Source: Escherichia coli (GTDB lineage: Bacteria; Pseudomonadota; Gammaproteobacteria; Enterobacterales; Enterobacteriaceae). From it: DNA of 586 nt. How positions within the stretch are numbered: the first letter of the stretch is position 1; every line of letters starts with the position of its first letter. The notes under the pieces are model-generated. The model was not told where the DNA came from. It saw nothing but the letters and a program-made list of their open reading frames with translations, and made no database searches. This document shows positions 1 through 586 of the stretch, one piece after another. The stretch lies in the NCBI RefSeq assembly GCF_003334255.1, contig NZ_QOWU01000219.1; one strand, written 5' to 3'. The position numbers were made by a program, and so were the translations under genes.

Positions 1-134
1 TCGTCAAAAACCCCCTGAACTTCGCCGCCACGTTGTGCTCCGGAGGTGAACTGCGCACGGATCCCCATCACTTCAACAATCGTACTGTCCACCCCGGCAA
101 GGGCGGCATCAAAGGCATTCTGAAAATCACGCAT
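1..134 (-). CDS. FII: Head-completion / head-tail joining protein FII-like; partial, first 44 codons only, C-terminal part lies beyond the window
   Basis: Minus-strand ATG at 134-132 opens a frame reading MRDFQNAFDAALAGVDSTIVEVMGIRAQFTSGAQRGGEVQGVFDD, still open at position 1. It aligns from residue 1 with lambda FII as I recall it (MADFDNLFDAAIARADETIRGYMGTSATITSGEQSGAVIRGVFDD). This ORF is absent from the supplied track, presumably because it is truncated. Its start overlaps the FI stop. Confidence 0.85.
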   Translation of the reverse strand, partial: MRDFQNAFDAALAGVDSTIVEVMGIRAQFTSGAQRGGEVQGVFD

Positions 135-501
135 AAACAGCCATTCCACCATCAACGTGTGTTTTTGCATCTGAGGACATAATCAGAATCACCCGACCAA
201 CATCCGCAAGCTCAACGGATTCCCCCGTTTCACCATCAACGCCACAGAGATGGAGGCAGGTCAGAACTCTGATGCGCGTTAACGCGCCGGATGTTTCCTC
301 ACGAACATCATGAGCCGCGGTTTCCCGCTCCCGGATATCCATATTCATAACCTGTACATCATCGCCGGATGACTGCATTTCCTCTTCCCATTCTGCCACC
401 CGCTGCGCTATCTCTGCGGCACTCCCGGATATATCCGGCTCACGCCCCAGAATCAGGGCCAGTTCATCAAGCCGTTTCAGATTTTGCTCTTTCGTTGCCA
501 T
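127..501 (-). CDS. FI: DNA-packaging protein FI-like (lambdoid head assembly); complete, 124 aa from ATG 501-499 to stop TGA 129-127
   Basis: This is the ORF-track reading frame, trimmed to the internal ATG at 501-499. The product starts MATKEQNLKRLDELALILGREPDISGSAAEIAQRVAEWEEEM, which aligns with my recollection of the lambda FI N-terminus (MTKDELIARLRSLGEQLNRDVSLTGTKEELALRVAELKEEL). An acidic linker and a C-terminal domain follow, as in FI, and the length is close to lambda FI (about 130 aa). A Shine-Dalgarno-like AGGGGG (minus strand, 512-507) sits 5 nt upstream of this ATG. The track's start at 549 is a GTG lying 3 nt after the upstream stop codon, and the extension it adds (MSGGEMPPCLFSQGAD) has no counterpart in FI. 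Confidence 0.85.
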   Translation of the reverse strand: MATKEQNLKRLDELALILGREPDISGSAAEIAQRVAEWEEEMQSSGDDVQVMNMDIRERETAAHDVREETSGALTRIRVLTCLHLCGVDGETGESVELADVGRVILIMSSDAKTHVDGGMAVYA

Positions 502-505
502 ATCA

Positions 506-532
506 GCCCCCTGTGAAAAAAGACACGGGGGC
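506..532 (-). promoter_or_regulatory. Alternative hairpin that sequesters the FI Shine-Dalgarno; mutually exclusive with the terminator-like hairpin
   Basis: Minus-strand RNA GCCCCCGUG(532-524) loop UCUUUUUU(523-516) CAC-A-GGGGGC(515-506) gives a 9-bp stem with a single bulged A (512). Its 3' arm contains the GGGGG Shine-Dalgarno of FI. It shares the 532-527 GCCCCC arm with the upstream hairpin, so only one of the two can form at a time. Confidence 0.3.
507..511 (-). promoter_or_regulatory. Shine-Dalgarno element (GGGGG) for the FI-like gene
   Basis: Minus-strand sequence CACAGGGGGCUGAUAUG: a G5 run with a 5-nt spacer (CUGAU) before the ATG at 501-499. Confidence 0.5.
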
Positions 533-545
533 ATTTCGCCCCCGC
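516..545 (-). terminator. Terminator-like stem-loop followed by U6, directly downstream of the capsid gene stop (candidate partial terminator or mRNA 3' stabiliser)
   Basis: Minus-strand RNA GGGGGC(543-538) GAAAU GCCCCC(532-527) is a perfect 6-bp all-GC stem with a 5-nt loop. It can extend by C544:G526 and G545:U525. It is followed by GUC and then UUUUUU (521-516), and begins 7 nt after the E-like stop. The U-tract is 3 nt from the stem rather than adjacent, so it is not a textbook intrinsic terminator. Confidence 0.35.
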
Positions 546-552
546 TCACGGA

Positions 553-586
553 TTATTTCACCTGTACCACCACAAACTCATCCGGA
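553..586 (-). CDS. E: 3' end of a major capsid protein gene (lambda E-like); partial, N-terminal part lies beyond the window
   Basis: Minus-strand frame with codons at 585-583 downward translates to ...PDEFVVVQVK followed by TAA at 555-553. As I recall it, lambda gpE ends ...PDEFVSVQLA. The position immediately upstream of an FI-like gene matches lambda gene order (E, FI, FII). Only 11 codons are visible, so the call rests on the motif and synteny. Confidence 0.6.
   Translation of the reverse strand, partial: PDEFVVVQVK

Follow-up and report, generated by a model that had tools for sequence, protein, structure and literature searches.

The window, by which we mean the whole 586-nt stretch of DNA analysed here, almost certainly belongs to a lambdoid prophage of Escherichia coli, of the phage 21 type, in which it forms part of the late (morphogenetic) operon. 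It is an ordinary, very common and previously sequenced lambdoid head-gene junction, and nothing in it is novel. The minus strand carries three frames in the order of lambda, namely the end of E, FI and the start of FII, at the positions given by the initial annotation. That annotation had described a conserved E/FI/FII block in reverse orientation and not a new system, and the frames, the DNA identity to known loci and the operon context all confirm its description; no observation speaks against the identity assigned to the genes. The features are as follows, those of the junction being given in the order of transcription.

586..553, minus strand: major capsid protein gene of the lambda E / phage 21 gene 7 type, 3' end only, comprising the last 10 codons and a TAA stop at 553-555.
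552..502, minus strand: 51-nt spacer from the capsid gene to FI, containing a hairpin and the FI ribosome-binding site.
515..545, minus strand: intrinsic-terminator-like element, a stem-loop GCGGGGGC-GAAAU-GCCCCCGU (545..525) followed by GUCUUUUUUC (524..515).
507..512, minus strand: AGGGGG, resembling a Shine-Dalgarno sequence, 5 nt before the FI ATG.
501..127, minus strand: complete FI gene (phage 21 'ORF1') of 124 codons, ATG at 501..499 and TGA at 129..127, for the DNA-packaging chaperone.
127..134, minus strand: 8-nt overlap ATGCGTGA of the FI stop and the FII start.
134..1, minus strand: 5' part of FII (phage 21 gene 8), the head-tail joining ('stopper') protein; the first 44 of 117 codons, continuing beyond the window.
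12..63, minus strand: patch with all 7 differences from phage 21 in the multiple alignment, equal to PhiR12_2_star there.

A total of 535 of the 586 bases (91.3%) are coding, and the spacer at 502-552 is the sole non-coding stretch. This agrees with the initial annotation, which had found coding to be close to complete, with no room for an additional gene. The sole long open reading frame in the 586 bases lies on the minus strand, at 127..549 from a GTG. No promoter-like site was detected by consensus scan in the whole window, and a search of both strands against Rfam returned no match in the window even at the permissive threshold of E<=1.

Database comparison and inspection of the flanking genes, both proposed by the initial annotation as checks, place the window firmly among lambdoid phages. 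Megablast against phage records gave 19 matches, every one to an Escherichia phage. Eleven of them span the whole window at 98.8% identity, and phage 21 is in this group with both its head operon (M81255) and its complete genome (OL657228). The BLASTN matches were exclusively to lambdoid Escherichia phages and E. coli prophages, with the genes annotated as major capsid, FI and FII. Matches occur in 1,546 of the 5,426 complete E. coli genomes, and in 888 a match extends over 80% or more of the window. Identity over 586/586 bases was found in at least 14 E. coli records among the matches listed, including several assemblies of ATCC 25922. The prophage copy of that strain (NZ_CP037449.1, 4160166-4160751), like that of many other strains, shows zero differences within the window, and its three genes are labelled in RefSeq as major capsid protein, DNA-packaging protein FI (WP_000201530.1) and head-tail joining protein (WP_001204533.1). 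In ATCC 25922, the identical locus is embedded in a complete and continuous series of head and tail genes in lambda order, all on one strand and extending from terminase to Lom. Upstream are both terminase subunits, small and large, a W-like joining protein, the portal, an S49 protease (peptidase) and a decoration protein; downstream are Z, U, V, G, T, the tape measure, M, L, K, I, J and Lom homologues.

A free phage genome, that is, a phage 21 or Jouyvirus-like virion, is an unlikely source in place of an integrated prophage. The 11 full-length phage matches at 98.8%, and the 100% identity of phage D2 over 152-585, speak for such an origin, but identity over 586/586 was found only in E. coli chromosomes and in no phage record. 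The two readings are in any case biologically equivalent, because these are temperate phages.

The initial annotation had held that the host could not be fixed from the window, and this has to be revised: the host is Escherichia, and all evidence agrees on it. Besides the phage matches and the complete E. coli genomes described above, this is drawn from the distribution of a 25-mer from the spacer. Among 100,044 species, with one representative genome each, the 25-nt hairpin core was found in E. albertii and in one contig of a Collinsella-binned MAG only. These contigs carry a different FI module, and their flanking parts are 86-90% identical to the window. A 30-mer specific to FI had 0 matches in the species-representative genomes. 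In the MAG contig (JAIJJM010000220.1, binned as the actinobacterium 'Collinsella sp.', 4,765 bp), the capsid/FI/FII junction is of the Escherichia type and contains the 25-nt hairpin core unchanged; the contig most likely represents an E. coli prophage fragment assigned to the wrong bin.

The window itself covers the last 10 residues of the capsid protein. Positions 585..553 translate to PDEFVVVQVK*, and lambda E ends with ...PDEFVSVQL; ten codons on their own would be weak evidence of gene identity. Homology of the lambda E type was found with the full gene of the 100%-identical E. coli locus, whose product shares 62% identity with lambda E (341 aa, E 7e-159). The full capsid protein of this locus also matches PHROG 2353, 6020 and 29, all 'major head protein', with an E-value of 4.7e-186 for PHROG 2353. 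The records of phage 21 (M81255) and of E. coli ATCC 25922 both annotate the gene as 'major capsid protein'. At a threshold of E<=0.001, NCBIfam yielded no model for FI and none for the capsid protein, and RefSeq names both all the same.

FI is a 124-aa protein translated from ATG 501 and beginning with MATKEQNLKRLDELA. It is placed between the major capsid gene and FII, and the same order is found in phage 21, the E. coli prophage and lambda. The initial annotation had matched the whole of FI to its lambda counterpart, a claim which stands when profiles are used and fails by BLASTP. The Pfam profile PF14000 (Packaging_FI) covers FI residues 3-120 with model positions 1-130 of 131 (E 8.9e-16), and PHROG 92, 'DNA packaging chaperone FI', covers residues 1-123 with model positions 1-127 of 128 (E 1.4e-43). 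By BLASTP, only the N-terminal third, residues 3-51, aligns to lambda FI residues 2-54, with 34% identity and E 1e-6, and no alignment to lambda FI was obtained for the middle and C-terminal parts. Membership over the whole length thus holds at the level of profiles only (Pfam PF14000 and PHROG 92). A phmmer search of FI against the PDB did not reach 2LSM, the solved C-terminal domain of lambda gpFI (residues 72-132), at E<=1 although this structure is among the entries searched; FI is connected to 2LSM by the Pfam profile alone. The only PDB match in that search was PBP2X at E 0.74, a chance match. RefSeq gives the protein the name 'DNA-packaging protein FI' (WP_000201530.1). The FI homologue in M81255.1 (locus 162-536) is still called just 'ORF1', without a product name.

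Two further in-frame starts of FI, GTG 549 and ATG 534, lie upstream and were rejected in favour of ATG 501. The preferred start aligns with the N-terminus of lambda FI and with position 1 of the Pfam model, and is preceded by AGGGGG at a distance of 5 nt. ATG 534 falls within the hairpin. A putative ribosome_binding_site for ORF1 is annotated in M81255 at AGGGGG, and AGGAGG, AGGGAG and AGAGGC occur as variants of the FI Shine-Dalgarno sequence in relatives. The start is recorded inconsistently, as ATG 534 (135 aa) in phage D2 and as ATG 501 (124 aa) in phage 21 and RefSeq.

The FII frame at 134..3 (ATG at 134..132) translates to MRDFQNAFDAALAGVDSTIVEVMGIRAQFTSGAQRGGEVQGVFD, which are residues 1-44 of the protein. 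The full FII of the identical locus shares 70% identity with lambda FII (117 aa, E 1e-59) and matches PHROG 82 (head closure Hc1) at E 5e-51. Its score against the NCBIfam model NF049848 (tail_join_FII) is 53.2 bits, above the curated cutoff of 25. Phage 21 gene 8 is annotated in M81255 as 'assists head maturation and tail addition'. With the FII start set to the first in-frame one encountered, a spacing of -8 between FI and FII was obtained in 44 of 75 related loci; the remaining 31 spacings are mostly artefacts in which the search chose an earlier in-frame start, and a few represent other FII types. The overlap ATGCGTGA is an arrangement typical of translational coupling and suggests that the translation of FII is probably coupled to that of FI. 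This junction differs between the phages, since the window and phage 21 have the 8-nt overlap whereas in lambda the two genes are separated by an 11-nt gap.

The window had been described at first as diverged from lambda and as a relative such as an enterobacterial prophage. Both the divergence and the prophage nature hold, but the closest relative is phage 21 and not lambda. The gene 7/ORF1/gene 8 region of phage 21 (M81255 and also OL657228) aligns over 585 of the 586 bases with 7 mismatches (98.8%), and the gene order is shared. Phage 21 is identical to the window over 64-585, that is, the capsid gene end, the spacer, the hairpin, the ribosome-binding site and the entire FI gene. The 7 substitutions are all within FII, at window positions 12-63, and the other 522 aligned bases of the 585-nt match, outside this patch, are without a mismatch. 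From the alignment, 12-63 reads as a small recombination patch equal to PhiR12_2_star. The E, FI and FII genes of lambda (NC_001416, 6135-7965) have the same order, and the N-terminal ~50 residues of FI are homologous. However, lambda FI is 132 aa long compared with 124 aa in the window, and blastn of the window against the lambda E-FII region found no DNA similarity at E 1e-5. In the phage 21 record M81255.1, the scaffold/protease region (genes 5/6), which is outside the window, contains three 'Tri box' repeats of about 105-114 nt at 2199-2593.

A multiple alignment was made of the window, phage 21, lambda and a further three lambdoid phages. Phage D2 (OM475427.1) is 100% identical to the window over 585-152 and then becomes lambda-type for the end of FI, the FI-FII junction and FII, so that its recombination joint falls in the last FI codons (window ~145-152). 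PhiR12_2_star and PhiR5_1 share about 88-90% identity with the window at the end of the capsid gene, in the spacer, at the N-terminus of FI and in FII, whereas their middle and C-terminal FI sequence can essentially not be aligned with it. Modules were surveyed in 76 usable IMG/VR loci, with capsid proteins 94-100% identical to that of the window. A total of 34 distinct FI proteins were found at these loci, with the first ~41 residues (MATKE...AEWEEE) common to all. After AEWEEE follows one of five unrelated-looking middle and C-terminal modules, of which one is lambda-like, for a total length of 120-133 aa (window 127-380; loci L007-L086). The swapping of FI modules is the usual modular exchange of lambdoid phages. 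FI was recognizable in the initial annotation because the conserved part is the N-terminal module.

The roles of these proteins would be those of their lambda counterparts. In lambda, gpFI is an assembly chaperone which binds to the gpE lattice of the prohead, stimulates the docking of terminase and DNA there and aids this complex in forming the packaging motor, while being absent from the virion itself (PMC4856287). The hexameric 'stopper' ring beneath the gpW adaptor is made of gpFII, which also touches the tail terminator gpU (PMC10721106). By analogy, the late operon of the prophage would be transcribed as a single long mRNA, and E would form the icosahedral capsid shell. FI would serve as a non-structural chaperone which binds the prohead and aids the docking of terminase and DNA to start packaging, and FII would form a hexameric ring beneath the W adaptor after packaging and supply the site for tail joining.

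The spacer after the capsid gene reads on the coding strand UAA-UCCGUGA-GCGGGGGC-GAAAU-GCCCCCGU-GUCUUUUUUCAC-AGGGGG-CUGAU-AUG. Its G+C-rich stem-loop stands directly before a T-run on the transcribed strand, as the sequence of a Rho-independent terminator requires. A scan with the terminator consensus found 1 site, at 545..525 with a T-rich tail, against about 0.5 expected by chance; the scan reported a 9-pair stem with 7 G-C pairs, a loop of 3 nt by its own count and the tail GTCTTTTTTC. The 37-nt hairpin element has a folding energy of -17.7 kcal/mol (z -3.3), and none of 200 shuffled sequences was equally stable. The stem is kept in 23 of 23 distinct variants of the spacer, as defined by the first 90 nt past the capsid stop in the 76 related loci. 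Changes in it are few, namely C-to-U changes giving G.U pairs (L015, L031 and L038) and the joint loss of one G and one C (L081), and the stem is partly broken in the spacer variant L018. These relatives show almost no covariation and are too close for real covariation statistics.

At the same place after E, lambda (L003:2164-2190) has a stem-loop unrelated in sequence, AUGGCCC-UUCG-GGGCCAU, followed by UUGUUUCUCU. The position is thus conserved between the phage 21 type and lambda without conservation of the sequence, which suggests that the hairpin has a function. Its most likely role would be to protect the capsid mRNA from 3' exonucleases or to terminate transcription partially. The hairpin and T-run would then act on the late mRNA either by blocking 3' exonucleases or by ending a fraction of the transcripts, and the capsid gene, since each head requires hundreds of copies of its product, would reach a higher expression than FI and the later genes. 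We searched the literature for a post-E hairpin or a late-mRNA stability element and found no description. We further propose, tentatively and as the less probable side of the question, that the post-capsid hairpin is a dedicated dosage device of lambdoid late operons, which would establish the large ratio of E to FI protein at the level of the RNA, through mRNA stabilization or partial termination; in the 21 type, the flanks UCC-GUGA and UCAC-A-GGG could pair with part of the FI Shine-Dalgarno sequence and lower FI translation. An extended lower helix hiding part of this Shine-Dalgarno sequence was predicted from the minimum free energy of the whole spacer and was rejected, with a z of only -1.25. 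Natural variants also alter one side of this helix without compensation (UCCGUG to UCCGGG; AGGGGG to AGGAGG, AGGGAG or AGAGGC), and it is therefore unsupported.

The hairpin and T-run could also be taken as a real terminator which ends a separate capsid transcript, with FI and FII in another transcription unit. The fit to the terminator consensus and the stable fold speak for this arrangement, yet it is very improbable. The spacer is just 51 nt long, and since the window contains no promoter-like site, FI and FII would be left without a promoter of their own. The late region of lambda, moreover, is one Q-antiterminated transcript, and Q-modified late transcription passes through terminators. 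Since late transcription in lambdoid phages is antiterminated, the termination efficiency of the hairpin within the single late mRNA that we favour may be low.

A hidden plus-strand gene or small RNA, such as the 49-aa open reading frame with a TTG start at 33..182 antisense to the FI/FII junction, can be dismissed with near certainty: this frame, the longest antisense one, has no stop in the window or in 57 of 75 relatives, as one would expect opposite coding DNA that is so highly similar, but it is interrupted by a stop in the other 18, and it has neither a promoter-like site nor an Rfam match on either strand.

The window can therefore be taken off the lists of candidates for new systems, being a textbook lambdoid junction which was sequenced in phage 21 decades ago and is carried by hundreds of E. 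coli genomes. Within it, FI provides a clean case of lambdoid mosaicism inside one small gene, in which a constant N-terminus is joined to at least five exchangeable C-terminal modules next to near-identical capsid genes. The conserved hairpin after the capsid gene is a possible gene-dosage element.
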